64,000 nucleotides of DNA, from NCBI GenBank assembly GCA_964353775.1, contig CAYGWB010000002.1:69185-133184 (forward strand). The letters run 5' to 3'. Under the pieces are notes generated by a model. That model had not been told where the DNA came from, ran no database searches, and saw nothing but the letters and a program-made list of their open reading frames with translations. Positions 3,610-25,137 of the stretch are shown here, piece by piece (the first letter of the stretch is position 1; the number at the start of each line of letters is the position of its first letter). The position numbers and the translations under genes are program-made. This DNA is from an uncultured archaeon (lineage in GTDB: Archaea; Aenigmatarchaeota; Aenigmatarchaeia; Aenigmatarchaeales; JAHLMS01).

Positions 3610-4629
3610 ATGGAAGTTGACGCAGTTCTTGAACGCATAATCGCGACGACCGGGATGAATAATGAGGACCTGGAGAGGAAGATAGCCGATAAGCAGAGGG
3701 AGCTGTCCGGTCTTGTCAGCCGCGAGGGCGCGGCCTACATAATCGCGAAGGAACTTGGGCTGGAACTGTTCGAGAAGTCCAAGCGCAGGCTGGAAATAAA
3801 GAGCGTCATACCTGGACTGAAGAACGTGACGCTCACCGCACGGATAGTTCGGATGTTCGAGCCACGACAATTTGAGAAGGACGGACAGAAATCGTGCGTG
3901 GCGAACGTCATACTGGGCGACGGGAGCGGCTCGTTAAGGCTCTCGCTGTGGGACCTGCAGTGCGACCTGCTCAAGCAGCTGCAACCCGGACTAGCTGTCG
4001 AGGTGTACGGAGCGTACACGAAGGACGACAGCCGGGGCGGGACTGAAATAAGGCTGAGCAAACGCGGCGGGATGAGAGTTCTGCCGAAGAGCGATCTGCC
4101 GAGCATGGATCAGATAAGGACGGCCTCGACGGAGACGCCGACAAGGGTGGACCTATCGGCGCTGAAAGAGGGCGGACTTTTCGAGGTGCGCGCGGCAATC
4201 GTGCAGCTGTTCGACAGCAACATGTTCTACGAAGTGTGCCCGACTTGCGGGACGCGCGTGCATAAGGAGACCGTAACGGAAGGCGCGAGACAGTATATGG
4301 TGTACAAGTGCGGCCAGCACGGGGAAGTGCAGCCGACGCATGCGATGGTCGTGTCCGGCGTAATAGACGACGGAACGGCGAACACGCGTGCCGTGTGGTT
4401 CAGGGACGCGGCGCTGAGCCTGATTGGAATGACCTTAGAGGACGCGGTCACGCACAGGGACGGACTTCTGGATAGCATAGACGTTCTCGGAAAGGAGTTC
4501 ATAATGGTCGGACGCGTTAAGAGGAACAAGATGTTCAATCGCATCGAATTCATAGTAAACAGCGTCAAGCCGGTCGAGCCGAAAAACGAGACTGAGGCGC
4601 TAATAAACGAATTGCGCAAGGGAAGTTAA
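3610..4629 (+). CDS. rpa: replication protein A (ssDNA-binding protein, OB folds plus zinc finger)
   Basis: OB-fold repeats and a CPTCGTRVH...YKCGQH zinc ribbon. The N-terminus is typical of archaeal RPA. Confidence 0.8.
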   Translation: MEVDAVLERIIATTGMNNEDLERKIADKQRELSGLVSREGAAYIIAKELGLELFEKSKRRLEIKSVIPGLKNVTLTARIVRMFEPRQFEKDGQKSCVANVILGDGSGSLRLSLWDLQCDLLKQLQPGLAVEVYGAYTKDDSRGGTEIRLSKRGGMRVLPKSDLPSMDQIRTASTETPTRVDLSALKEGGLFEVRAAIVQLFDSNMFYEVCPTCGTRVHKETVTEGARQYMVYKCGQHGEVQPTHAMVVSGVIDDGTANTRAVWFRDAALSLIGMTLEDAVTHRDGLLDSIDVLGKEFIMVGRVKRNKMFNRIEFIVNSVKPVEPKNETEALINELRKGS

Positions 4630-4671
4630 AGGATAAATAGTTTGCGGTCAATTGTTATAGGTCTGATTTTT

Positions 4672-5655
4672 ATGGCTGAGAAAGAGAAAGTGAAGGCTGT
4701 CGCGGATCTGCCGGGCGTCGGTGAGAAGATTGCGGAGAAACTGCACGACTCCGGATACGAGGACATGATGGCTGTTGCGGCCGCCAGTCCAGCCGAAATG
4801 GCCGAGGCGGCCGAGCTCGGGGAAGCGACCGCAGCAAAGATAATTTCTGCCGCGCGTGACGCGCTTGAGATGGGATTCGAGACCGCAACGAAAGTGCTGG
4901 AAAAAAGAGCGAAGGTCGGACACATCTCAACCGCCAGCAAGAACCTGGACAATTTGCTCGGCGGGAAGGGAATCGAGACCGGAGCGACCACGGAGTTCCA
5001 CGGTGCGTTCGGCTCGAGCAAGACACAGATTGCGCACCAACTGTCCGTTATGGTACAAATGCCAGTTGACAAAGGCGGGCTCAACGGAGCCGCCCTCTAC
5101 ATCGATACAGAGGCCACGTTCCGACCTGAAAGAATAAAGCAGATGGCCGAGGCCCTGAAGCTGGACCCGAAGAAGGTGCTGGAGAACATCTACGTCGCAC
5201 GTGCATATAATTCCGATCACCAGACGCTTTTGGCCGTGAAGGCGGGCGACCTGATCAAGGAGAAGAACGTCAAGCTGATTATAGTCGACTCCGTGACAGC
5301 GCTGTTCCGCTCAGATTTCTCAGGTCGAGGCGAACTAGCGCCAAGGCAGCAGAAACTCAACCGCCACCTGCACACATTGCAGAGGCTGGCGGACGTCTAT
5401 AATATTGCGATATATCTGACCAACCAGGTGATGTCCAGGCCGGACGTAATGTACGGCGACCCGACGACGCCGATAGGCGGCCACATCATGGGGCATTTCT
5501 CGACCTTCCGCGTGTACGTGAGAAAGTCGAAGGGCGACACGCGCATAGGCAGGATGATAGACAGCCCGAACCTGCCCGAGGCCGAATGCGTGTTCTGCAT
5601 AAAGCCCGAGGGCGTCCGTGACCCGGAAGAAGACGAGAAGAGAAAGCGAGAGTAG
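4672..5655 (+). CDS. radA: DNA repair and recombination protein RadA
   Basis: N-terminal HhH (LPGVGEKIAEKL), Walker A GAFGSSKTQ and RecA-fold motifs. Start moved to the ATG giving MAEKEK. Confidence 0.93.
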   Translation: MAEKEKVKAVADLPGVGEKIAEKLHDSGYEDMMAVAAASPAEMAEAAELGEATAAKIISAARDALEMGFETATKVLEKRAKVGHISTASKNLDNLLGGKGIETGATTEFHGAFGSSKTQIAHQLSVMVQMPVDKGGLNGAALYIDTEATFRPERIKQMAEALKLDPKKVLENIYVARAYNSDHQTLLAVKAGDLIKEKNVKLIIVDSVTALFRSDFSGRGELAPRQQKLNRHLHTLQRLADVYNIAIYLTNQVMSRPDVMYGDPTTPIGGHIMGHFSTFRVYVRKSKGDTRIGRMIDSPNLPEAECVFCIKPEGVRDPEEDEKRKRE

Positions 5656-10087: not shown

Positions 10088-10125
10088 TCCTTAAACTTTA
10101 AATAAAACCTAAGCCAAGAATCTAC

Positions 10126-14472: not shown

Positions 14473-15786
14473 CTACGTTTTGTAGCGATTGAAGAAGTCT
14501 GACAAAAGACCGATCCTCTCGTCAACCTTGTTCCAGCGTTCGATGAGCTTTCCTGTCTTCTTATGCAGCTCATTGTACTTGTCTATCGTACTTTTGTCTT
14601 TCTCAAATGTTTCGAGCGCTGTCATGAACTCTGATACGCCCGGACCGTCGAGCTTGAGGCCGGCGTGCTTCAGTCCTGAAGCGAGAATGAACTCGTTTCC
14701 TTTCGCGTAATTAACCATGCAGTCGCGGAAGTATCTTATGTTTTCCTGCGTTATCTCGCGCATCATCTGCATAATTTTCAGGTGTGCCCTTGCGTTCTTG
14801 TCGCCGTTCAGATGATCGTAGATGCTCGATATCTGATCGAGCGGCCTGTACTTTTCGCTCCTTAGCTCGTCATCGATTTCAACGGTCTGTTTTTCGACAT
14901 CCCTTTTCTCTTTTTCAGCCCGTTCCAGCTGATTCCTGTTCCTAGCGGTGAGATGATTGAGGACCACGATGGTGTCGCGGGCCGCTGCTGGCAGCATGTT
15001 CTGATAATTCAGCTTCAATTTAGATGTCATCTCGTCCTTGGCCTGACGTTCGTGCAGCGCATTGACGCCCTTTATTTGTTTAGAAACTTCCGCGCATTCC
15101 GCTTCAAGCATTTTGTATTCCGCCTCGACCGTGCCGTAATGTTTCGGGAATTTCGACACTTTATTTGCGATGTCGTTATACGTTTCGTATTTTTCTTTTG
15201 CGCTTCTGAAAAGCGATTCCACATACTCTTTCTCTTCGTCGGGTATGACGTCCGCCATCTTCGAACGCATGCTCTCCATCACAGAACCGGTGAAATCACC
15301 AAAATTTACGGCTGCTACGGCGGCGCTGTTCTCGATGGCTCTCACCTGGTTTCGGCCGAAGCCTTTCATGGCCTTGCCCGGTGCTTTTGCGATGCCCTTT
15401 CTGGTCCTGCGGCTCCAGTAAAGTATCTCTTTTAAAATTCTCACCGATTCCTGTTTGCTTGATACCATGCCGCGCGGGTTCCCTGATGCCATAAAGACCC
15501 TTGCGCCGACTTCCGTGTAACTCTTGTGGACTAACCCTTCGAAGTCAACATTGTTCTTGTTTGCGACACCATTGAATTTCTCATACGCTGACCGATAGAA
15601 ATTGATCATATCATGGTAAACGGCGGACTGGCGTTCCATATATTCGTCGTTGACAGCCTTCAGGACAACCATAGTCTTGCGTTTTTGTTCCTTCTTTCCA
15701 TTGAGCTCCGAGAGCATATTCTCAAGCTGTGCGATTTCAGGCGTTCCATTGGCCTGAATTTCAGGATGTTCTGCGTCGGAAGACAT
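14473..15786 (-). CDS. coiled-coil-rich hypothetical protein (437 aa)
   Basis: Very K/E/R-rich with long predicted helices and no recognisable catalytic motif. It sits upstream of, and on the same strand as, the ABC-2 exporter. Confidence 0.55.
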   Translation of the reverse strand: MSSDAEHPEIQANGTPEIAQLENMLSELNGKKEQKRKTMVVLKAVNDEYMERQSAVYHDMINFYRSAYEKFNGVANKNNVDFEGLVHKSYTEVGARVFMASGNPRGMVSSKQESVRILKEILYWSRRTRKGIAKAPGKAMKGFGRNQVRAIENSAAVAAVNFGDFTGSVMESMRSKMADVIPDEEKEYVESLFRSAKEKYETYNDIANKVSKFPKHYGTVEAEYKMLEAECAEVSKQIKGVNALHERQAKDEMTSKLKLNYQNMLPAAARDTIVVLNHLTARNRNQLERAEKEKRDVEKQTVEIDDELRSEKYRPLDQISSIYDHLNGDKNARAHLKIMQMMREITQENIRYFRDCMVNYAKGNEFILASGLKHAGLKLDGPGVSEFMTALETFEKDKSTIDKYNELHKKTGKLIERWNKVDERIGLLSDFFNRYKT

Positions 15787-15811
15787 GAGTTCAGATTCGA
15801 AGCAAAAGGAT

Positions 15812-17518
15812 TTAAGCTCTTGCGATGACGGCCATGCCGCGCTTGAACTGCTTCATCTCTTCGGAGTTCAGCAGCGCTTGGCCGACAGAAATGACGTTCT
15901 TCTTGCTAGTGACGGCGACCTCTTCGCCCGGAAATATTTGGTCCTTGGTGCCCACGAACTTGACGAAAACGGAGCCGCCCTTCGCGACTATCTTTGCGAC
16001 ATCAGGGTCGGCTATCGCGACGTGTTTCATCTTATTTCCCAGCATCTTTGCGCCATCGACCGTCGGCAGGAAGAAACCGTCGGATGGTCGGATTGTTCCG
16101 AGCAAGGACTTGCGACCGGTTGTCCAGACGCGGCGGATCCTGCCCGTGCGTTTGGATATCTCCAGTTCGGCCTTTGCAAATTTCTTGGCCGAACCCTTGC
16201 CGAACTCGTAGTCCAATGTGGCAGCGAGTATGTCCTTCGTCTTCGCTTTGACCTTCGGCTCGGGCAGACCAGGAAGGATTGACTGACCGAAGGGATAGAC
16301 AGATTTCAGCCCGACTGGAATCTTTCCGAACGGCGGTTTTGTGAAATATTTTTTTGACTTTACGCGCTTCCTCCATTCGAGAGCTCGGAAAATCTCCGGC
16401 CTGTGGCCGCTCTCCTCGCCTGACCAGAGCAGAGCGGACTTCTTGCACACCCTGTCGAAGTTCGCCAGCCACTTTCCGTGGCGTGCGAGCGACCAGTGAA
16501 GCCCGGCCAGCAGGGCTGGGTGGCTGCGTGCGCGTTCCTGCACGAGTTCCCACAGCCACTGGCCGCGGATTGCCGTGCGAATCGTTCTCAACTCTTGGAA
16601 CGTAACATACAGATTATGTTTTGCTAAGAACTTGACGCGTTCAGGCTCTGCAAGCTTCTTTATCTCTGCTGGGTCCGCCTTCGAGCAGACCGGGCAGGAA
16701 CATGGGAACTCGACGAGGTCGAAAAGGTTGAGCGTACCGCTGGTTGTCAGGTAGCCGTCACGATAGGCGGCGAGCGAGTACATCGCGGAGTCGAACATGT
16801 CGCAGCCGAGAGCTGTCAGAAACGCGAACGCCATCGGGTGCCCAGCGCCGAAGGCGTGGACCGGCGTTGCGAACGGCAGGTTCTTCTTGCATGTGATTAT
16901 GATTTCCGCGAGCTCATCGAAGCGGTAAGCTTCCATCAGCGGAACTATGCCGCCGATGGCAAAGATGTCAGGCTTGATTTTGGCGATCTGCTTGCATGCG
17001 GTCGCGCGCTGGTCGAGATACATGCCACCCTGGATCGGGCCGACAAGACAGCGGTCCGGAACGGCCTTCCTGGCGGCTGCTGTCCTGCGGACGGTCTCGG
17101 CCAGTTTCTTCTTCGCGACCGAAGCCGGATCGTCCGGCAACGTGAACAGGTCGAGCGGCGTGATCACGTCCGAGCCGATCGCATGCTGGAACTTCACAAT
17201 TTCCTTCGGGTCGATGTCTGACACGCCCTGGCTGAACATCTGGAACGTCCCGGAGTCCGTGTAGATCGGCCCGGGCCAGTTCAGAAGCTTGTGCAGGCCC
17301 TGTTCGAGCGCCTTCTTCCTGAGCTCCTCATGCTTGTTGATGATGTAAGAATTGGTGATGATTATCTCGGCGCCGAACTCCTTGCGGAGCTCAGAAGGGG
17401 TAACGGGCATCTTGTTGGGGTTTATGACAATCGCGATGTTGGGCGTGCGGACGATATGTTTGCCGACCGACCATTTGCAGATACGCCCGCCTGCGTCGCG
17501 GTCGATAAGTTCGAGCAT
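15812..17518 (-). CDS. tgtA: archaeosine tRNA-guanine transglycosylase (TgtA) with C-terminal PUA domain
   Basis: Catalytic YTDSGTFQ and PLDLF motifs, zinc site CSCPVC...H, and a 568-aa length with a C-terminal PUA-like segment. Confidence 0.9.
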   Translation of the reverse strand: MLELIDRDAGGRICKWSVGKHIVRTPNIAIVINPNKMPVTPSELRKEFGAEIIITNSYIINKHEELRKKALEQGLHKLLNWPGPIYTDSGTFQMFSQGVSDIDPKEIVKFQHAIGSDVITPLDLFTLPDDPASVAKKKLAETVRRTAAARKAVPDRCLVGPIQGGMYLDQRATACKQIAKIKPDIFAIGGIVPLMEAYRFDELAEIIITCKKNLPFATPVHAFGAGHPMAFAFLTALGCDMFDSAMYSLAAYRDGYLTTSGTLNLFDLVEFPCSCPVCSKADPAEIKKLAEPERVKFLAKHNLYVTFQELRTIRTAIRGQWLWELVQERARSHPALLAGLHWSLARHGKWLANFDRVCKKSALLWSGEESGHRPEIFRALEWRKRVKSKKYFTKPPFGKIPVGLKSVYPFGQSILPGLPEPKVKAKTKDILAATLDYEFGKGSAKKFAKAELEISKRTGRIRRVWTTGRKSLLGTIRPSDGFFLPTVDGAKMLGNKMKHVAIADPDVAKIVAKGGSVFVKFVGTKDQIFPGEEVAVTSKKNVISVGQALLNSEEMKQFKRGMAVIARA

Positions 17519-17543
17519 AATCAGTATCTTGTTCGGCCGTATT

Positions 17544-18266
17544 TCAAACTATGCCATCTTTTGAATCGGCAAGAATTTTCTTCAGTTCCGATATCTCCTT
17601 GACCTTATAGTCGAACTTTTCCACAGGTTTAGGGTATTTGAAATTCGGATAGGTCAGCACCCAACAGACATCGATGCCGAGCTTCTTTGCATAGGCATCC
17701 TCGTCCAGCCTGTCGCCGACCATCAGGCACTCCGACGGTTTCAGCTTCATCTTTCGCATGGCGATCCTGAACGGCGTCAGGTCGGACTTCTTCGAGCCTA
17801 TGTCACCTGACACCAGAATCAGGTCGAAGTATTTGCATATGCCGAACTTCTTCATCTTGCGCGGCATGACGTTCGCCCAGCCGTTCGATATCAATACAAT
17901 CTTCATCCCTTTGCGTTTGATGTACGCGAGCACTTCCTTGGAATGCGGATAGAGCTTGACATTCTTCAGGTAAAATTTGATGTAGTCATCAAAGTCCTGC
18001 AGTGCCTGCTTCTTTGAAATTCTTATCCCGAGCCCGCGGCCGATCAACATCGGGCGCAGTTCCGGACGCCCTCTTGCTGACGCCCTGTAGTTGTCCATCA
18101 TCTTTTCCACCTTACGGACGACTACAAGGAAGTCCTTGTACGAACCTATGTACCCTCTGGAGCGCCACATCGGAAGGTTGAACTTGTGATGGATGTCCCT
18201 CTCGACCGGAGTGGTGTCGGCCAACGTACCGCCGAAGTCAAAGAACACCGCCTTGTATTTTTGCAT
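17544..18266 (-). CDS. HAD-superfamily hydrolase
   Basis: Motif I FFDFGGTL, then ISNG and a motif IV reading MVGDRLDEDAYAKKLGI. Start trimmed to the ATG giving MQKYKAV. Probably an operon with tgtA, with a 25-bp gap. Confidence 0.75.
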   Translation of the reverse strand: MQKYKAVFFDFGGTLADTTPVERDIHHKFNLPMWRSRGYIGSYKDFLVVVRKVEKMMDNYRASARGRPELRPMLIGRGLGIRISKKQALQDFDDYIKFYLKNVKLYPHSKEVLAYIKRKGMKIVLISNGWANVMPRKMKKFGICKYFDLILVSGDIGSKKSDLTPFRIAMRKMKLKPSECLMVGDRLDEDAYAKKLGIDVCWVLTYPNFKYPKPVEKFDYKVKEISELKKILADSKDGIV

Positions 18267-18302
18267 AATAGCTATTCGGTTCTGTGATTTAAGTTTAAAT
18301 AC

Positions 18303-18953
18303 TTGGCACTTCTCGTTCTTCTTATGCAAGAAGTCCGATATTTTGGTGACAATACAATCGAGTACGACGACGCAGGAATCAGGCATCCGGTGCTCGGAAA
18401 GCTGAGGCACAACGACAACTCCGTGAAGCGGATGGAACTGATATACGTCATGATGAACGCCCAGCGACTCCTCGAAGGCGAATTCCGGTATGTTGACATT
18501 GAAAAATGGAAGAGGAAGAGGCGGGTCACGGCCTGCGAGGATTCGATAGACAACAGACGTTTATTTCCCATTACCATGGTGCCTATGAAATGCAAACTGC
18601 TTGAAAGGGAGACGTGGGAGCACACGTATGATGCGAGGTTCGAGGTCGACTATCCTGGCGAACGGGTCTTCATGAAGGACGTTGACGTTGGCTACTACAA
18701 GCACGGTTACGCCCCGATCGAGAACAAAAGACTGCACACGTTCCTGAATGTGATAAGCCTAAATATTAGGGAGCTGCCAGACTATGAGTATGGAAAAAAC
18801 GATGCTGATGTCGAGCGGCAAGTGCGCGTGGGGGGAGTGCTTCGCGTGCGGATGGGGCAGGATGACGGGGCCGCCGCCGTCCATGCACAGGCTGAAAGAT
18901 ATCATAGACGAGAAGTTCCGAGAGCTCAGAAAGGAAAAGATTTCCAGGCTTAA
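18303..18953 (+). CDS. hypothetical ORF, possibly the N-terminal segment of the downstream radical SAM gene joined by a frameshift
   Basis: Protein-like through about 18800, then GC-rich nonsense. Overlaps the next ORF by 170 nt in another frame. An A6 run at 18794-18799 lies at the junction. Confidence 0.3.
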   Translation: MALLVLLMQEVRYFGDNTIEYDDAGIRHPVLGKLRHNDNSVKRMELIYVMMNAQRLLEGEFRYVDIEKWKRKRRVTACEDSIDNRRLFPITMVPMKCKLLERETWEHTYDARFEVDYPGERVFMKDVDVGYYKHGYAPIENKRLHTFLNVISLNIRELPDYEYGKNDADVERQVRVGGVLRVRMGQDDGAAAVHAQAERYHRREVPRAQKGKDFQA

Positions 18954-20079
18954 GATTTTCGCTTCCGGCTCTTTCTTGGACGACAAGCAGTTCCCGGCAA
19001 CGATCAGAAGGTATATTGCCAAAAAGTGCCTGGAGCAGGACATACACGAGCTGACGGTCGAGTCGAGGCCGGAGTTCGTCACGGCCGAACGGTTGGCCGA
19101 TTTCAAGAACATCAATCTTACGGTCGCGATCGGGCTGGAGGTCGCTGATAACGAGCTTCTGAAAAAATATCGCAAGGGGTTCACGACAGAAGACTTTGCG
19201 AAGGCAGCTGAGACCTTGCATGCCGCCGGCTGCAAGGCACGTACGTACCTGATGGTGGGCATTCCGTTCGCGGCCGACCAGGCGGCTACGACGAAAAGAT
19301 CGGTGGAGTTCGCGCGCAAGTACTCGGACAGCATCGTCCTGATAAACACGTTCCCGCATTCTGCCGCTCCGATATTCGACCTGTGGGTCAGCGGAAAGTG
19401 GAGACCGCTCGATAAAAGACAGTTCGCGGATATCATCAAGAACTATCCGGACTGCGAAACGGAATTCAACAATTTCGCGTTCGTGCCGAAGTTCCACAGG
19501 GAGAAGCAGGAAAAAATAAAGGGCGCGACCGAGAAGGAACTCCTGCACCCGCACTTCGAGCTGTGGCAGGACTACTTCGCCAGGTTCTACGAGCCTCCGG
19601 CCGGGCTGGAGGTCGCATTGTTCGTCCCGTGCGCGTTCAGGAAGCCCTACCGTTTCAGCCAGCTGCACAAGGCGATATTCGGTGTGCTGGAGAAGCTGAA
19701 GGTTTTCAGTCGGCTGCACGTAATAGTCATCAGCTCGCCCGGTGTGATACCGTACGAGTTCTCCAATCACTATCCGTTCACGAGCTACGACTGGCCTGAG
19801 TGGGAGGAGACGCCCGAGATAAAGAAAAGATATATCGAAGTGACGCAAGCACGCATTGAGAAATATTTCCATGCTCATGGAAAGCACTATAAGAAGTTCT
19901 ACAACTTCTTCAAGCCTGATTCAGAAAGCTACACTGCCTTGGCATCCGCATGCAAGAAACTGGATATAGAACTGATCGACTGTCTGGGTGAAAAAACTTA
20001 CGAGAGCATAAAGGACCAGAAGAACCCGCTGACGAACGAACAGGCGCTCGCCGACCTGAAGAACGCGCTCGATCAGTGA
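18784..20079 (+). CDS. radical SAM-like protein with non-canonical CX4CX2C cluster motif (candidate archaeosine-pathway enzyme)
   Basis: CAWGECFACGW sits at residues 14-24, followed by TIM-barrel-like radical SAM blocks (TVAIGLEV...TYLMVGIPF). The gene is divergent from the HAD-tgtA operon. Confidence 0.6.
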   Translation: MSMEKTMLMSSGKCAWGECFACGWGRMTGPPPSMHRLKDIIDEKFRELRKEKISRLKIFASGSFLDDKQFPATIRRYIAKKCLEQDIHELTVESRPEFVTAERLADFKNINLTVAIGLEVADNELLKKYRKGFTTEDFAKAAETLHAAGCKARTYLMVGIPFAADQAATTKRSVEFARKYSDSIVLINTFPHSAAPIFDLWVSGKWRPLDKRQFADIIKNYPDCETEFNNFAFVPKFHREKQEKIKGATEKELLHPHFELWQDYFARFYEPPAGLEVALFVPCAFRKPYRFSQLHKAIFGVLEKLKVFSRLHVIVISSPGVIPYEFSNHYPFTSYDWPEWEETPEIKKRYIEVTQARIEKYFHAHGKHYKKFYNFFKPDSESYTALASACKKLDIELIDCLGEKTYESIKDQKNPLTNEQALADLKNALDQ

Positions 20080-20083
20080 TAAG

Positions 20084-20296
20084 CTACAATTTGTAAAGCA
20101 AATCGAAGGTTAAATCCACGGTGTCTTCGCTGAAGCCGCAGTACAGCGGCCGTTTGCGCTCCTTCAACCGATTGTAGACGTTTCTGCACGCAGATGCAGT
20201 ATAGAAAACTGTGAAGCCCGGCCCGAATAATGGATGTATGATCAGCGTCGGCGTTGCTGCGACTGCCTTCATCTCTTTTATGGCTTTTGTTGTCAT
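20084..20296 (-). CDS. small hypothetical protein (70 aa)
   Basis: Own TATA-like TTAAATA about 27 bp upstream of the ATG. Confidence 0.3.
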   Translation of the reverse strand: MTTKAIKEMKAVAATPTLIIHPLFGPGFTVFYTASACRNVYNRLKERKRPLYCGFSEDTVDLTFDLLYKL

Positions 20297-20322
20297 GTCT
20301 GAGAAAGGGGATAATTATGTAT

Positions 20323-20547
20323 TTAAGCTTTTGTCGACGGGACGGCGCCGTGTATTTTTTCCCTGAGATGCTCGCGCACCTGGTCGCTGTTGAGGTTCTT
20401 CTGCTCACAAAAGAAGTCGTACATGATGCCGGACGAGTGGCATTTCATGTTGTCTATCTCGCATCTGTGTGGGTGGTAAGCCGGACACAGTGACACGTTC
20501 TGAGCCGTCTGTTCTGGTCGCAGCCTATACTCGTCCGTGTTTCCCAT
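20323..20547 (-). CDS. small Cys/His-rich hypothetical protein (about 74 aa)
   Basis: Possible metal-binding spacing C-x3-H-x-H-x-C...C-H...C. Has a TATA-like TTTTTTATA and GAGG upstream. Confidence 0.35.
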   Translation of the reverse strand: MGNTDEYRLRPEQTAQNVSLCPAYHPHRCEIDNMKCHSSGIMYDFFCEQKNLNSDQVREHLREKIHGAVPSTKA

Positions 20548-20623
20548 CAATCCGCCTCAGAAATAATTGGTATAAAAAACTTATATTTAGATACTTTCTG
20601 CCATTGAAAGTGTTTAAATCCTT

Positions 20624-21562
20624 TTGTGTTCAACTGCCTTAATGCGTCTCGACAAAAACGAGCAATATGGTTTTATCAGAAGACTCTATAAGGAGCACCA
20701 TGATGCGCCGAGAGACTATATTTTGGGCCATTTCGAAATTGGTAAGGGTGTGATGAAAAACTGGAGACGCGCGTGGAGGGAAAAGAGAGACTATATTGAT
20801 TTTCAGAAAAGCAAACCGATGGAAAAGGACAGGTATGATGAGCTGAAGCCTGAATTCGTTTATGAGTACACGCTTGACGTTATGCCGAAAATAATGGCCA
20901 TCGATATCATCAAAAGGCACCGTGAGCGCGGCCTGAACAAGAAAATATACGCCAACGACATAAACGAAGCGTTGTCCGCGCATTTCAACAAGAATATAGA
21001 ACTACCAGGGCGCACCCTGTGGGACTGGTCGAACGGATGCCAGCCCGATGACGTAAAAAGAAAGCTCATAAATGAAGAGCTTTGCAAAACAGAATTCTCG
21101 ATACTTGAGACGGAACTGACAGCGACGCATTGGCGCTATCATTACGTGCGCGAGGCAGTGGAAAGGAACGGCGCGGCCAGCGGAATATACCGCACACTCA
21201 TGATGCAACTAGGCGAGCCTTACGACAGGTTGCGCGGCTGGGTGTACAAGGGAAACGGACATTGTATGGCAAAATCTTTCCGAGATAATGAACTGGTCGA
21301 TGAAATATACGCAATTGCGTGCGAAGACGCTGACAAGACAGAGGCGGCCATGCGAGAAACTGCCGGACTCGGACGGAAGGTGTACAGCACCGTCGCCTAC
21401 GCCTTCAATCTCAAATATTCCAGGTTGGACAATACATTATCTGCTGATCTGGAAAATTTTGTTGGCCATGAATGTGCAAATATGAGCGAGAACGCGCAAA
21501 AAAGGATATTAAATTACTCAATCGATCAATTGAAAGCGTCGAACCTGGGATTCAAGATTTAA
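20624..21562 (+). CDS. hypothetical protein
   Basis: 312-aa ORF with balanced composition and no recognisable motif. The true start may be the internal Met at 20642. Confidence 0.5.
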   Translation: MCSTALMRLDKNEQYGFIRRLYKEHHDAPRDYILGHFEIGKGVMKNWRRAWREKRDYIDFQKSKPMEKDRYDELKPEFVYEYTLDVMPKIMAIDIIKRHRERGLNKKIYANDINEALSAHFNKNIELPGRTLWDWSNGCQPDDVKRKLINEELCKTEFSILETELTATHWRYHYVREAVERNGAASGIYRTLMMQLGEPYDRLRGWVYKGNGHCMAKSFRDNELVDEIYAIACEDADKTEAAMRETAGLGRKVYSTVAYAFNLKYSRLDNTLSADLENFVGHECANMSENAQKRILNYSIDQLKASNLGFKI

Positions 21563-22850
21563 TCGGCATGCCGTTCTTCATTACAAGTCTTCGGTCCGCC
21601 CACATGTTGCCGTTCCTTCCTTTCATGATCTTGATCATATCGAGGTGTGAGCTGGCGATGTTCTTTCCGTGGTAGGCGCCGGTGTTGTTTCCGATGGCGA
21701 TGTGAATCGAGCCGAATATCTTCTCGTCGACGATCGTCTCGCCGATGAAGGCGGCCGCCGGGTTCGTTCCGATGCCCAGTTCTGCTATGCGGTCCTTCTC
21801 GCCGGTGTTGCTGTCCAAGAACTTCTTGAACTTTTTCGCTCCGTCTCCGGGAGCTGAGTACTTGACAACTTTGCCGTCCTTGAACGTGATCTTAAGCTTC
21901 TTTACGAATCCGTAGCCATGCGTCACGACGTAATCGAATACTATCGTTCCGTTGGCGGAATACTCGAGCGGAGCAAGAAAGACCTCGCCGTCCGGGATGT
22001 TGAGACCGATGTCTCCGTTGCGCAGATCGTGCGCATCAATCACTCCGTCCGCCAGAAGCACAGGTCTGCCCTTGATAGAAAACGTCAGGTTTGTGCCGTC
22101 ATCGGATTTAATTGTTATTTTGTCCGTGTTCGCAAGCGCCTTTTTGTAATATTTGCACAGTTGCCTGACCTTCGGAGTGAACGTCTCGGCTATCGAGTCC
22201 AAGAAGACCTTCCTGTATTTTGCCGGGCTCACGAGGTATTCCTTCTTGTGGACGGGCCAGCCGAAGAGGCACCAACGCATCTTTCGCTTGTCCATTATCT
22301 GGTGCAGTTTGCTCGAGCCTGGCGCTCCGAGCTTCTCCTTCACCTCAAGACCGCGCACCCAGTTGTCGTCCTCATCACCGCCAAGGAAAATTCTGGCGTC
22401 GAACGTCTGGGCCGTGAGCTTTGCGGAAAGCGGCAGTTCTGCCGCGGTATCCCACGGCATCAGTTTCAGGTGCGCCCTGCTGTCGGCCGAACTATACGGT
22501 ATTGTCGCTATGTGAACGCCCCTTTTCCACGCCTCCTGTTTTATCAGGCGGGCCAGCTCGACGCATTCCGGCTCATTATCACTATATGTCATCCGGACGA
22601 GCTCGCCTACGGTCTTCTTGACGAAATATTTCTTCCCGCGCTTCACGAGCAGAGGGCCGTAGTCCGTGTCAGCCAGCTTTTGGAGCAGCTTCTTGTTCTT
22701 AAATCTGGTCGGGTCGATGTATTTTTTGGAAACTATCTTATCGACCGCCTTGCCGTACCGTTTGCGTGCCAGTGCAATCCCAGGATTCGGCTTGCGACCG
22801 ACAGGTATTGACTTGGCGAGAAGGTCGTGCGCGACTGTTTTCAAATTCAT
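21552..22850 (-). CDS. aminopeptidase, M29 (AmpS/PepS) family
   Basis: 432 aa. The C-terminal IAELGIGTNP...DEKIFGSIHIAIGNN...HLD block is typical of thermophilic M29 aminopeptidases. Confidence 0.7.
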   Translation of the reverse strand: MNLKTVAHDLLAKSIPVGRKPNPGIALARKRYGKAVDKIVSKKYIDPTRFKNKKLLQKLADTDYGPLLVKRGKKYFVKKTVGELVRMTYSDNEPECVELARLIKQEAWKRGVHIATIPYSSADSRAHLKLMPWDTAAELPLSAKLTAQTFDARIFLGGDEDDNWVRGLEVKEKLGAPGSSKLHQIMDKRKMRWCLFGWPVHKKEYLVSPAKYRKVFLDSIAETFTPKVRQLCKYYKKALANTDKITIKSDDGTNLTFSIKGRPVLLADGVIDAHDLRNGDIGLNIPDGEVFLAPLEYSANGTIVFDYVVTHGYGFVKKLKITFKDGKVVKYSAPGDGAKKFKKFLDSNTGEKDRIAELGIGTNPAAAFIGETIVDEKIFGSIHIAIGNNTGAYHGKNIASSHLDMIKIMKGRNGNMWADRRLVMKNGMPIKS

Positions 22851-23887
22851 GGAATCAACCTACGGGGATAGTTCGTTAGTAGTTTGAGGCCTTTCCTTGT
22901 TAATAAAAACATGTCCTCTACGCGTATACCGCCCCAGCCGCTGAAATAGAGGCCCGGCTCGACGGTGAAAATCATGCCAGACTTCAGCCTGTCCTTGGAC
23001 CGCTTGGAAAGGGACGGACTCTCGTGAATCTCAACACCCGTGCCGTGCCCAAGGCTGTGCGTGAACGCCTTGCCCAGACCGAGCTTGCGCGCGACGTCAC
23101 GTGCTGCGCGGTCGACCGCGGCAGCCTGCGCTCCGACCTTCACTTTCTTCAGCGCGGCCGCCCGCATGGCTAGAACAGTGTTGTAGACCTTTCTTTCCTT
23201 CTGGCCGGGCTTCAGACAGAACGTTCTCGTCATGTCAGAACAGAGCCCTTCGACCTGCGCGCCGATGTCGATTATCACCAGGTCCTTCTGTCCGATCTTC
23301 CGGTCGCTGACACCCATATGAGGGCTCGCGCATCTGTCGCCCGAGGCGACTATGCTGTCGAAAGAATATCGGTCGGCTCCGGCGCGGCGCATCGTCGATT
23401 CTGCGACCGCCGCCAGCTGGCGCTCCGTGACGCCAGGTCTGATCGCCTTGGCGACCGCCTTCATACCGGAAACAACTATGTTCGCGGCCTTGATCGTCTT
23501 TTTGATCTCGCCGCATGTTTTCACGCTCCGCATGCGTGTGAAGATGTCTGACGCTGGAACGAGCTTTCCTTTTATAATTTTTTGTATTCTTTTCATCATG
23601 CTGACAGAAATCTCATCATCCTCATAGCCTATGCGGCTCCTGCCGGTCATCTTTGCGACCGTGCGCCACCATTTGTGGCTTATTTTCAATAAGAAAGTTT
23701 TAGGTATCCTGGCATGCTCGAACTCCGTGCTGATTATGGTCGGCTCTCCTCTTGCAGGGATGACCAGGAGCGCCCCCAGCTCCCATTCGCCGGTGAGCCA
23801 CAGGAGATTCGGTTTGCTGCTCACAATAAGAAAATCGAGCTTGCGGGCTCGCAGCGCGCGCTGCAGCTCGGAAATGCGGTTGTCCAT
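22847..23887 (-). CDS. Xaa-Pro aminopeptidase / M24 family metallopeptidase
   Basis: Metal ligand blocks DIGAQVEG, HSLGHGTGVEIHE and VEPGLY. Confidence 0.85.
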   Translation of the reverse strand: MDNRISELQRALRARKLDFLIVSSKPNLLWLTGEWELGALLVIPARGEPTIISTEFEHARIPKTFLLKISHKWWRTVAKMTGRSRIGYEDDEISVSMMKRIQKIIKGKLVPASDIFTRMRSVKTCGEIKKTIKAANIVVSGMKAVAKAIRPGVTERQLAAVAESTMRRAGADRYSFDSIVASGDRCASPHMGVSDRKIGQKDLVIIDIGAQVEGLCSDMTRTFCLKPGQKERKVYNTVLAMRAAALKKVKVGAQAAAVDRAARDVARKLGLGKAFTHSLGHGTGVEIHESPSLSKRSKDRLKSGMIFTVEPGLYFSGWGGIRVEDMFLLTRKGLKLLTNYPRRLIP

Positions 23888-23892
23888 GCTGA

Positions 23893-23920
23893 TTTAATCT
23901 AGTGGCCAAAAGAAAAAGGC
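23893..23920 (-). terminator. Perfect 6-bp-stem hairpin GTGGCC-A(6)GA(5)-GGCCAC between the dnaG stop and the M24 start
   Basis: Stem-loop followed by a T/A-rich run. Could terminate or attenuate dnaG readthrough. Confidence 0.3.
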
Positions 23921-23925
23921 CACCG

Positions 23926-25137
23926 TCAGCTCAAATCAGCCGCCGTAACGACCTGGGTGTTCTCAGGCACGCTGCGTACGCTGCTCTTCATCGCGGCTAT
24001 CAGCTTGACTCCTCGCTGCGCGGCAAAGTTGACCAACCGTTGGTCGGCCTCACCATCCAGCACGAGTATGTCCGCTTGCAGCTCGCGCAAAGCGTTGAAG
24101 ACCTCGCGGAGCGGAACCTTGCCGATTATGTCTCCGCCTTCCTTCATCAGGTAGGCAGCTCGCGTTCCGGTCAGCTCCTCCAAGGTGCTTCTCAGCAGCT
24201 CGGCCTTGCCAGGTTCGAACTTACGGGTAGGCCTGCGCTCCTCGCGCCTTTCCGAACGTTCAGCGCGTTCCGGCCTCTCAGGGCGTTCGGGACGCTCGCC
24301 GTTCTCGGAAATCATCTTCGCCTGATCGAGCGGAACATGGTCGCGCAGGGACTTGAAGAGCTCCTTCTTGGTCAGCTCCTCGACCTCCTTGCCGCGCGGC
24401 GCGCGTGCAACGAAATCTATCTCCGAAGTGGCCATCAGCTCTTTCAAGATAAGGTCCCCGCCTCGGTCGCCGTCCAGGAAGACTGTCACTTCTTTCTGCT
24501 TGGTCAGCTCCGCAACAGCCGGCGGCACGGACGTGCCCTCGATGGCTACGACGTTCTTGATTCCGTGCTTGAGCAGATGGATGACATCTGCGCGCCCCTC
24601 GACTATGACTATGCTGTCATAGTTCTCTATTGCCGGGCCGGCCGGCAGCCCTTGCCAGCTCGTTATCTCCGCTCCACGCACGGACTCCTTCAGTTCTTCA
24701 GCAAGCTGAGCGACCTCCGGAATGCCCTCTTCGAATATCTTCGCAAGCAGTTCCTTCGCCCTTGTGACCACGTACTGTCTCTTCACCGAACGGACGTCCT
24801 CGATCTTGTCTATCAACAATCGTGAGTTCGCCGGTCCGATCCGTTCGATGGTCTCTATGCAAGCGGCTATCAGAGCCGTTTCCGTGCTGTCCAAAGAACT
24901 CGGTATCATTATCGTTCCTGAAGTCTTCCCGCCTTTCGTGTTCAACTCGACGTCTATTCGGCCTATTCGGCCGGTCCTTTGCAGTTCGCGCAGGTCCATG
25001 TCCGGTCCGAGCAGACCTTCGGTCTGTCCGAAGACGGCGCCGATCACGTCCGGCTTCTCAACCGTTCCGTCGGCCTCGAACTTCGCGAATATCGTGTATT
25101 TTGAAGCAGCCTGTGCTAGCTTCGCCATATTGATCAT
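23926..25137 (-). CDS. dnaG: DNA primase DnaG (archaeal Toprim-type)
   Basis: The archaeal DnaG N-terminus FAKFEADGTVEKPDVIGAVFGQTEGLLG plus Toprim motifs (VVIVEGRADV...DGDRGG). Confidence 0.85.
   Translation of the reverse strand: MINMAKLAQAASKYTIFAKFEADGTVEKPDVIGAVFGQTEGLLGPDMDLRELQRTGRIGRIDVELNTKGGKTSGTIMIPSSLDSTETALIAACIETIERIGPANSRLLIDKIEDVRSVKRQYVVTRAKELLAKIFEEGIPEVAQLAEELKESVRGAEITSWQGLPAGPAIENYDSIVIVEGRADVIHLLKHGIKNVVAIEGTSVPPAVAELTKQKEVTVFLDGDRGGDLILKELMATSEIDFVARAPRGKEVEELTKKELFKSLRDHVPLDQAKMISENGERPERPERPERAERSERREERRPTRKFEPGKAELLRSTLEELTGTRAAYLMKEGGDIIGKVPLREVFNALRELQADILVLDGEADQRLVNFAAQRGVKLIAAMKSSVRSVPENTQVVTAADLS

Follow-up and report, generated by a model that had tools for sequence, protein, structure and literature searches.

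In Thermococcus, archaeosine is made in tRNA by two proteins acting in concert: ArcS moves lysine to the preQ0 (7-cyano-7-deazaguanine) at position 15 only when complexed with RaSEA, which radical S-adenosylmethionine (radical SAM) enzyme then makes archaeosine from the resulting preQ0-Lys (PMC11298593). ArcS from the same genus is reported to be active even on preQ0 nucleotides (PMC11298593), and the catalytic core of the protein, the C1 domain, carries the motif PC-x3-KPY-x2-S-x2-H (PMC10516641; PMC5699537). We analyzed a stretch of 64,000 nucleotides from an uncultured archaeon of the Aenigmatarchaeota (contig CAYGWB010000002.1), hereafter the window, where positions 18303–20079 carry two overlapping open reading frames (ORFs) on the plus strand, here ORF1 and ORF2. 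The original prediction had taken the pair for a single radical SAM gene of about 590 amino acids (aa), split at a run of A residues by an indel, by pseudogenization, or by a programmed frameshift, and had tentatively connected that gene with archaeosine formation. Of this interpretation the connection with archaeosine withstood the analysis, whereas the split gene did not: the region very probably contains two independent plus-strand genes, which arrangement requires neither a frameshift nor an indel nor a pseudogene.

The junction itself was as first described. Direct reading of the sequence confirmed the run AAAAAA at 18794–18799, the ORF at 18303–18953 in frame 0 and the ORF at 18784–20079 in frame +1, and the closure of the ORF2 frame upstream by the TAA at 18760–18762, while the removal of one A opens a single frame of 591 codons counted from the TTG at 18303. 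A codon-usage score trained on 34 long ORFs of the window—for which the chunks of the training ORFs averaged 0.31 bits/codon and the 95th percentile of the off-frame chunks was 0.05—likewise placed the change of coding frame at the A-run, around position 18800. The in-frame score of ORF1 over 18324–18797 was 0.30 bits/codon; over 18798–18950 the frame of the ORF1 tail scored 0.00, as against 0.345 bits/codon for the frame of ORF2. The run lies within the ORF2 codons GAA AAA ACG (Glu2-Lys3-Thr4), and the same codons in two related loci read ATG GAA AAA CTA (an A5, in locus L062) and ATG GAA AAG ACA (in locus L059, which carries GAAAAGAC where the window has the A-run); the run is the Glu-Lys-Thr of the conserved ORF2 N-terminus. 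A second public assembly of the same genome (L001; Logan assembly of run ERR4334727) agrees with the window at every base of 14790–24079, A6 included, and an exact-flank pattern search for the A-run junction in the JGI metagenome contigs returned no match.

That ORF2 is a complete gene was indicated above all by its relatives. With the hypothetical fused protein as the query against 5.8 billion proteins, we obtained 326 matches, of which the best 120 are those considered here as listed homologues. These were not the single proteins of 580–600 aa that a split gene would call for: their lengths range from 374 to 457 aa, with a median of 428, and the portion of the fused query to which they align, about 73%, corresponds to ORF2 only. 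None of them is continuous across both halves, nor does any family homology span the junction, as the RaSEA profile begins within ORF2 and ORF1 belongs to no family. One match (P0001; 429 aa) is 100% identical to ORF2 and begins at the ATG at 18790. The N-terminus of the family is conserved as M(K)EKT(I/L)(I/L)L.SGKC.WG.C..CGWG, the starts MEK and MKEK being typical, and in 113 of the 117 listed homologues that carry the cysteine motif the first Cys lies at residues 11–18; because the N-termini of the family are so conserved, the MEKTMLMSSGKCAWGECFACGWG of the window can be recognized as a typical family start. In addition, the alignment with the RaSEA profile TIGR01210 opens at profile position 17, corresponding to ORF2 residue 4, so that at most some 16 residues would be missing and not 160. 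The AlphaFold2 model of ORF2, built from 97 homologues, had a mean pLDDT (predicted local distance difference test) of 95.8 and a pTM (predicted template-modeling score) of 0.89, with the strand at residues 2–7 already ordered.

The gene thus delimited extends over 18790–20079 (+; 429 aa), with the ATG at 18784 as an alternative start. Ahead of these codons, at 18760–18773 (+), lie an A/T-rich TAAATATT (18760–18767; 23 nt before the ATG at 18790) and an AGGGAG (18768–18773; 10 nt before the ATG at 18784), both of which might serve as signals for an independent expression of ORF2. The segment 18750–18830 can also form a hairpin that pairs about 18773–18777 with about 18814–18818 and encloses the ORF2 start codons together with the A-run; its minimum free energy is −23.5 kcal/mol and its signal is marginal (z = −2.15; 7 of 200 shuffled sequences fold equally well). 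When ORF1 is not being translated, this hairpin could hide the start of ORF2.

Regarding the first domain of ORF2, which occupies 18799–19410 (+) and is RaSEA/Elp3-like (TIGR01210, PF04055), the best radical SAM subfamily in the profile searches—and the best match in NCBIfam—was RaSEA itself, TIGR01210, with 123.3 bits and an E value of 1.2e-35 over profile positions 17–230 of 313, which score lies under the cut-off of 212 bits for the full profile; Elp3 followed as a distant second (E = 1.6e-9). PF04055 scored 55.9 bits, and Foldseek matched the first 240 or so residues to Elp3, MgmA, LipA, and HydE, so that a radical SAM fold accompanies a three-cysteine 4Fe-4S motif, the CAWGECFAC at 18823–18849 (+). 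The spacing Cx4Cx2C of this triad had been noticed at the outset as a non-canonical feature: the motif is present as stated, though as a trait of the clade rather than an oddity, shared by 117 of the 120 listed orthologues; archaeal Elp3 has it as well (CPHGKCIFC).

The second domain, at 19564–19905 (+), corresponds to DUF5591, the catalytic core C1 of ArcS (PF17884; 56.5 bits, cut-off 26). Its motif PCAFRKPYRFSQLH (19627–19668, +) matches the PCx3KPYx2Sx2H of ArcS, which 113 of the 120 listed orthologues retain. With the ArcS models NF040592 and NF053620 the alignment is confined to the central part of the profile (positions 261–435 of 575), with 54.9 and 54.3 bits against cut-offs of 440 and 600. 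The whole ArcS architecture of Nt, C1, C2, and PUA domains is accordingly not found in ORF2, where the Pfam search returned no TGT-like, TGT_C2, or PUA domain. The C-terminal domain matches AF0587 (2q07) by sequence (E = 1.5e-7) and by fold, while the sequence and fold searches of the PDB returned no ArcS or RaSEA structure among the matches to ORF2. The association of RaSEA with ArcS is thus present at the level of the sequence as a covalent fusion of both modules in one ORF.

By analogy with the ArcS–RaSEA complex of Thermococcus, we propose that ORF2, from the ATG at 18790 or possibly 18784 to 20079, would be a full-length single-chain archaeosine synthase in which a RaSEA-like radical SAM domain, with the Cx4Cx2C as its 4Fe-4S ligands, is fused to the C1 core of ArcS. 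The neighboring TgtA would install preQ0 at position 15 of the tRNA, the C1 core would attach lysine to that preQ0, and the radical SAM domain would then cleave the preQ0-Lys to archaeosine.

The genomic surroundings are consistent with this proposal. The tgtA gene (ArcTGT, tRNA-guanine(15) transglycosylase; 15812–17518, −) scores 463 bits with TIGR00432, above the cut-off of 350, and contains the TGT, C1, C2, and PUA domains. A tgtA homologue occurs upstream of the fusion gene on the opposite strand in 23 of the 62 loci (fetched with flanks of up to 4 kb), and in several of them it lies 50–70 bp away, a directly divergent arrangement seen in many other DPANN loci. The predicted participation of this radical SAM protein in archaeosine formation is therefore supported on three counts: the best-matching family is RaSEA, the ArcS core motif is intact, and the divergent tgtA recurs in those 23 loci.

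Close relatives differ in what lies between tgtA and the fusion gene. In the window the segment 17544–18790 contains a HAD-family hydrolase gene (17544–18269, −, with its ATG at 18269; PF13419, PF00702), located between tgtA and ORF1, followed by ORF1; in L002 (1807–4000) and L003 there are an AsnC-type regulator and small ORFs; in L059 (1391–4000) an ORF of 847 aa stops 5 nt short of the ATG of the fusion; and in L005 (1–223) an unrelated ORF lies upstream. The 847-aa ORF is by sequence likeness a candidate P-type ATPase. The HAD gene, which had no match in the other fetched fusion loci with the sole exception of L001, the same genome, is lineage-specific at its position. Since the segment is variable among the relatives, ORF1 is a lineage-specific insert that lies outside the conserved archaeosine gene pair.

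Orthologues of the fusion gene were found in metagenome-assembled genomes (MAGs) of Aenigmatarchaeota, Micrarchaeota, Nanoarchaeota, Nanohaloarchaea, Iainarchaeum, and Woesearchaeota, and also in Ignicoccus pacificus and in MAGs of Desulfurococcales and Thermoproteales. Bins labeled as lineages outside the DPANN that carry the fusion are L031 and L053 (both of Methanosarcinales MAG JAIWAJ01), L035 and L039 (Desulfurococcales), and L050 (Thermoproteaceae); some of these are very short contigs of low coverage, which could reflect either mis-binning or a wider distribution, and a firm case outside the DPANN is the complete genome of Ignicoccus pacificus (L045). In Nanoarchaeum equitans (L060; AE017199.1) the match at 4001–4693 comprises only the DUF5591 half, corresponding to query residues 204–429, with no radical SAM half in the surrounding 4 kb; N. 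equitans may have here either one more split gene or a C1 protein that stands alone. We found no description of a RaSEA–ArcS-core fusion in the literature searched, from which the primary ArcS and RaSEA papers were absent, so that a prior description is possible.

As to ORF1, its conserved coding part covers 18324–18797 (+; 158 codons), with a hydrophilic product of about 19 kDa, and is followed by a tail of 51 codons (18798–18953, +) in the −1 frame of ORF2 that ends with the TAA at 18951–18953. An exhaustive phmmer search of 1.84 billion representative proteins returned a single homologue, P0121 (171 aa; E = 9e-26; 40% identity over residues 1–147), the alignment with which begins Met to Met at the ATG at 18324; the TTG at 18303 is therefore not the start. 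The nucleotide identities of the two genes at the first, second, and third codon positions were 0.55, 0.64, and 0.39, the last value being as saturated as that of the neighboring fusion gene (0.41), which coding-type pattern is the mark of selection on the protein. Further relatives were sought without success: the word-index search returned none and the profile search only P0121, the scans of genome, metagenome, and viral contigs gave none, no Pfam, NCBIfam, or PHROG family matched, and tblastn over the fetched loci detected ORF1 only in L001, which is the same genome, and in L062, with no match in the 56 loci that ORF2 had brought up from the genome collection. The AlphaFold2 model, obtained from an alignment of two sequences, was unusable (pLDDT 34.6).

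In front of ORF1 a TTTAAATA box, a putative archaeal TATA element, is located at 18294–18301 (+), with the ATG at 18324 23 nt downstream, and in L062 the ATG of the homologue is preceded at about 22 nt by GTTTAAATAG, so that both loci of the family have the same GTTTAAATA box at a distance of 22–23 nt from the ATG. Of the 14 TTTAWATA boxes in the window (among them those at 10097+, 27552+, 26635−, and 41124−), six have the ATG of an ORF of at least 50 aa 22–29 nt downstream, suggesting that leaderless mRNAs may be common in this genome. The promoter function of the TTTAAATA box is predicted from these spacings, and the box may be bidirectional, serving the divergent HAD gene as well. Coding composition, protein-level conservation, and a TATA box at a conserved spacing thus concur in ORF1, which on these grounds appears to be a real, separately promoted gene whose expression we predict: a lineage-specific gene for a small soluble protein that would probably be transcribed from its own TATA box into a leaderless mRNA and, having no stop before the ORF2 start, would let its frame run on for 51 codons within ORF2. 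The public assembly L001 has no gene call at this place, an omission that the overlap of 164 nt on one strand would probably explain. The search of the 520-bp gap for non-coding RNA gave no Rfam match at E ≤ 1 and no tRNA; the minus-strand ORF at 18272–18625 has non-coding codon scores, and those at 18759–19439 and 18766–19887, antisense to ORF2, we take to be shadows.

The comparison with L062 was decisive for the relation between the two genes. In that locus P0121 (656–1171) immediately precedes an orthologue of the fusion gene that is 78% identical to ORF2 and whose true start is the ATG at 1096 (MEKLLLLASGHC; MEKLLLLASGHCAWGECFACGWG; interval 1096–1722). The same pair of genes is, however, arranged in another geometry: the frame of the fusion gene relative to that of the ORF1-family gene is +1 in the window and −1 in L062, the same-strand overlaps measure 164 and 76 nt, and the ORF1-family frames continue past the junction for 51 and 22 codons, respectively. 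The tails themselves (NDADVERQ... in the window and YCYLLAAIALG... in L062) are unrelated. From the density of stops in the alternative frames (0.035 stops per codon in the window and 0.068 in L062), the probability of at least 51 open codons in the window was P = 0.16 and that of at least 22 in L062 was P = 0.21, so that both tail lengths agree with chance. Being unrelated and standing in opposite frame relations, the tails are therefore most likely free of selection, the ORF1-family frames simply reading on until a stop occurs by chance. The annotations of the two loci are mirror images: the genome of the window has no ORF1 call, whereas in L062 P0121 is kept and the fusion gene is called from the GTG at 1207, with the loss of 37 codons and of the Cx4Cx2C Fe-S motif, which start was miscalled because the P0121 frame runs over the true one.

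Several points weigh against the existence of two independent genes with the roles that we assign to them. Same-strand overlaps of 164 and 76 nt are unusually long. The length of the A6 is known from assembled sequence only, and L001 may share reads with the window, in which circumstance the two assemblies would not be fully independent. ORF1 has one known homologue, no predicted fold, and no assigned function, and its expression is predicted from sequence features; the enzymatic activity of ORF2 is likewise a prediction, with scores under the curated cut-offs of both RaSEA and ArcS.

If, as one possibility, ORF1 and P0121 constituted a new small-protein family that acts as an accessory or regulator of the minimal synthase, their overlap with the fusion start would be functional and not accidental. 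ORF1 might then stand in for the missing PUA, C2, and Nt domains by providing the RNA binding that disappeared with them, or ribosomes translating ORF1 might couple the expression of the two genes by crossing the weak hairpin at 18773–18818 (z = −2.15). We regard this possibility as unlikely.

If, alternatively, ORF1 were non-functional—either the remains of a gene in decay or an ORF present by chance in the 520-bp spacer—only ORF2 would matter. The lack of a called gene in the public assembly, the single homologue among billions of proteins, the absence of a family and of a fold, and the want of an own stop before ORF2 would all agree with such a status, which we nevertheless judge rather improbable in view of the gene-like codon usage, of the at least 158 open codons in both loci, of the conservation at the protein level with saturated third positions, and of the conserved TATA box and spacing.

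A third possibility concerns a −1 slip on the A_AAA_AAC at 18794–18800, after which ORF1 would end in GKKRC at the TGA at 18806–18808, and a protein of about 162 aa would replace or accompany the one of 209 aa. The GGA AAA AAC of the ORF1 frame does hold a canonical X_XXY_YYZ heptamer, and the −1 frame meets its stop three codons on. The heptamer is not conserved, however, since L062 has G_AAA_AAC, from which a −1 slip would enter the fusion frame; no stimulatory structure lies downstream; and the Glu-Lys-Thr codons of ORF2 fully account for the sequence, so that we consider such a slip quite improbable.

Even less probable is an indel introduced into the homopolymer by sequencing or assembly, according to which the true run would be an A5 and the product one ORF1–RaSEA–ArcS protein of about 585–590 aa. 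The 591-codon frame opened by the deletion of one A and the change of the coding signal exactly at the run are what such an error would leave behind, and they stand against the A6 in both assemblies, the absence of any such N-terminal domain among the 120 listed orthologues, the family-typical Met start and complete fold of ORF2, and the L062 pair, which is also unfused and would need the opposite shift for its repair. Two assembly errors of opposite sign at one spot are as unlikely as opposite shifts at an A-run that is not conserved. In sum, the orthologues of about 430 aa with no N-terminal extension, the TIGR01210 match from residue 4, the fold from residue 1, and the opposite frame relation in L062 led us to abandon the split-gene claim in its three forms.

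Finally, a programmed +1 ribosomal frameshift or a transcriptional slippage at the A-run, delivering a fusion beside the separate products, is hardly tenable despite the A-run at the junction and the overlap of an ORF1-family gene with the fusion start in both known loci, inasmuch as neither a conserved slippery site nor a conserved direction nor a stimulator was found (the shift would be +1 at an A6 in the window and −1 at an A5 in L062; the fold of 18800–18890 is no more stable than that of shuffled sequences, with z = 0.07), most orthologues have no ORF1, and an A6 is short for transcriptional slippage.

The reading of two independent genes removes a false lead, namely that of a frameshift, a pseudogene, or a recoding event at this site, and exposes an annotation artefact that works both ways, with ORF1 dropped in the genome of the window and the synthase shortened in L062. 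It also draws attention to a large family (326 matches) from DPANN archaea and some Crenarchaeota, mostly labeled just "DUF5591 domain-containing protein," in which the RaSEA and the ArcS core are contained in a chain of some 430 aa. If active, its members would be minimal archaeosine synthases without the tRNA-binding domains of the canonical ArcS, which condition would fit the action of the Thermococcus ArcS on preQ0 nucleotides (PMC11298593), and a protein of the ORF2 type could suit structural work on the ArcS–RaSEA reaction as a single-protein target.

Among the other ORFs, no Pfam or PHROG family rose above the noise for those at 14473–15786 (−), 20624–21562 (+), 20084–20296 (−), and 20323–20550 (−). 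The neighboring ORF of 437 aa looks rich in coiled coils, and that of 312 aa has a codon score of 0.215 and a G+C content at third codon positions of 0.56, both under those of its neighbors. Farther on, two adjoining long ORFs at about 45157 (−) and 46740 (−) carry the canonical Cx3Cx2C motifs CPYRCAFC and CNLSCPFC and are probably radical SAM enzymes.

Compared with known systems, the locus shares with the dnaX-type −1 and prfB-type +1 frameshift genes and with the homopolymer pseudogenes an A-run between two coding-looking frames; here, by contrast, the shift direction is not conserved, no stimulatory structure is present, the orthologues are unfused, and the second of the two frames makes up a complete gene, its own Met start being conserved. 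Elp3 of Methanocaldococcus infernus (6iad), which is among the best structural matches to the N-terminal domain of ORF2, has the Cx4Cx2C in common with it, whereas ORF2 is without the acetyltransferase (KAT) domain, the identity is 12–19%, and the profile comparison favors RaSEA (E about 1e-35) over Elp3 (1.6e-9). With ArcS2, the stand-alone C1/DUF5591 protein of phages and some archaea (PMC10516641), and with AF0587 (2q07), ORF2 shares the DUF5591 core and its PCx3KPYx2Sx2H; the phage ArcS2 acts on the preQ0 of DNA (PMC10516641), the 2q07 match is limited to the C-terminal domain of ORF2, and a radical SAM domain, which is not described for those proteins (PMC10516641), is present in ORF2. 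Closest of all is the ArcS–RaSEA of Thermococcus kodakarensis and other Euryarchaeota (PMC11298593), where a TIGR01210-type radical SAM enzyme and the ArcS catalytic domain operate downstream of ArcTGT/TgtA; ORF2 has both modules and the ArcS motif and lies beside tgtA. Relative to that pair, ORF2 scores under both cut-offs (123 versus 212 and 55 versus 440 bits) and its ArcS part consists of the C1 core and a short helical C-terminus, with no Nt or PUA domain detected, but the chain of 429 aa contains both subunits, whose combined activity it would be predicted to exert alone.

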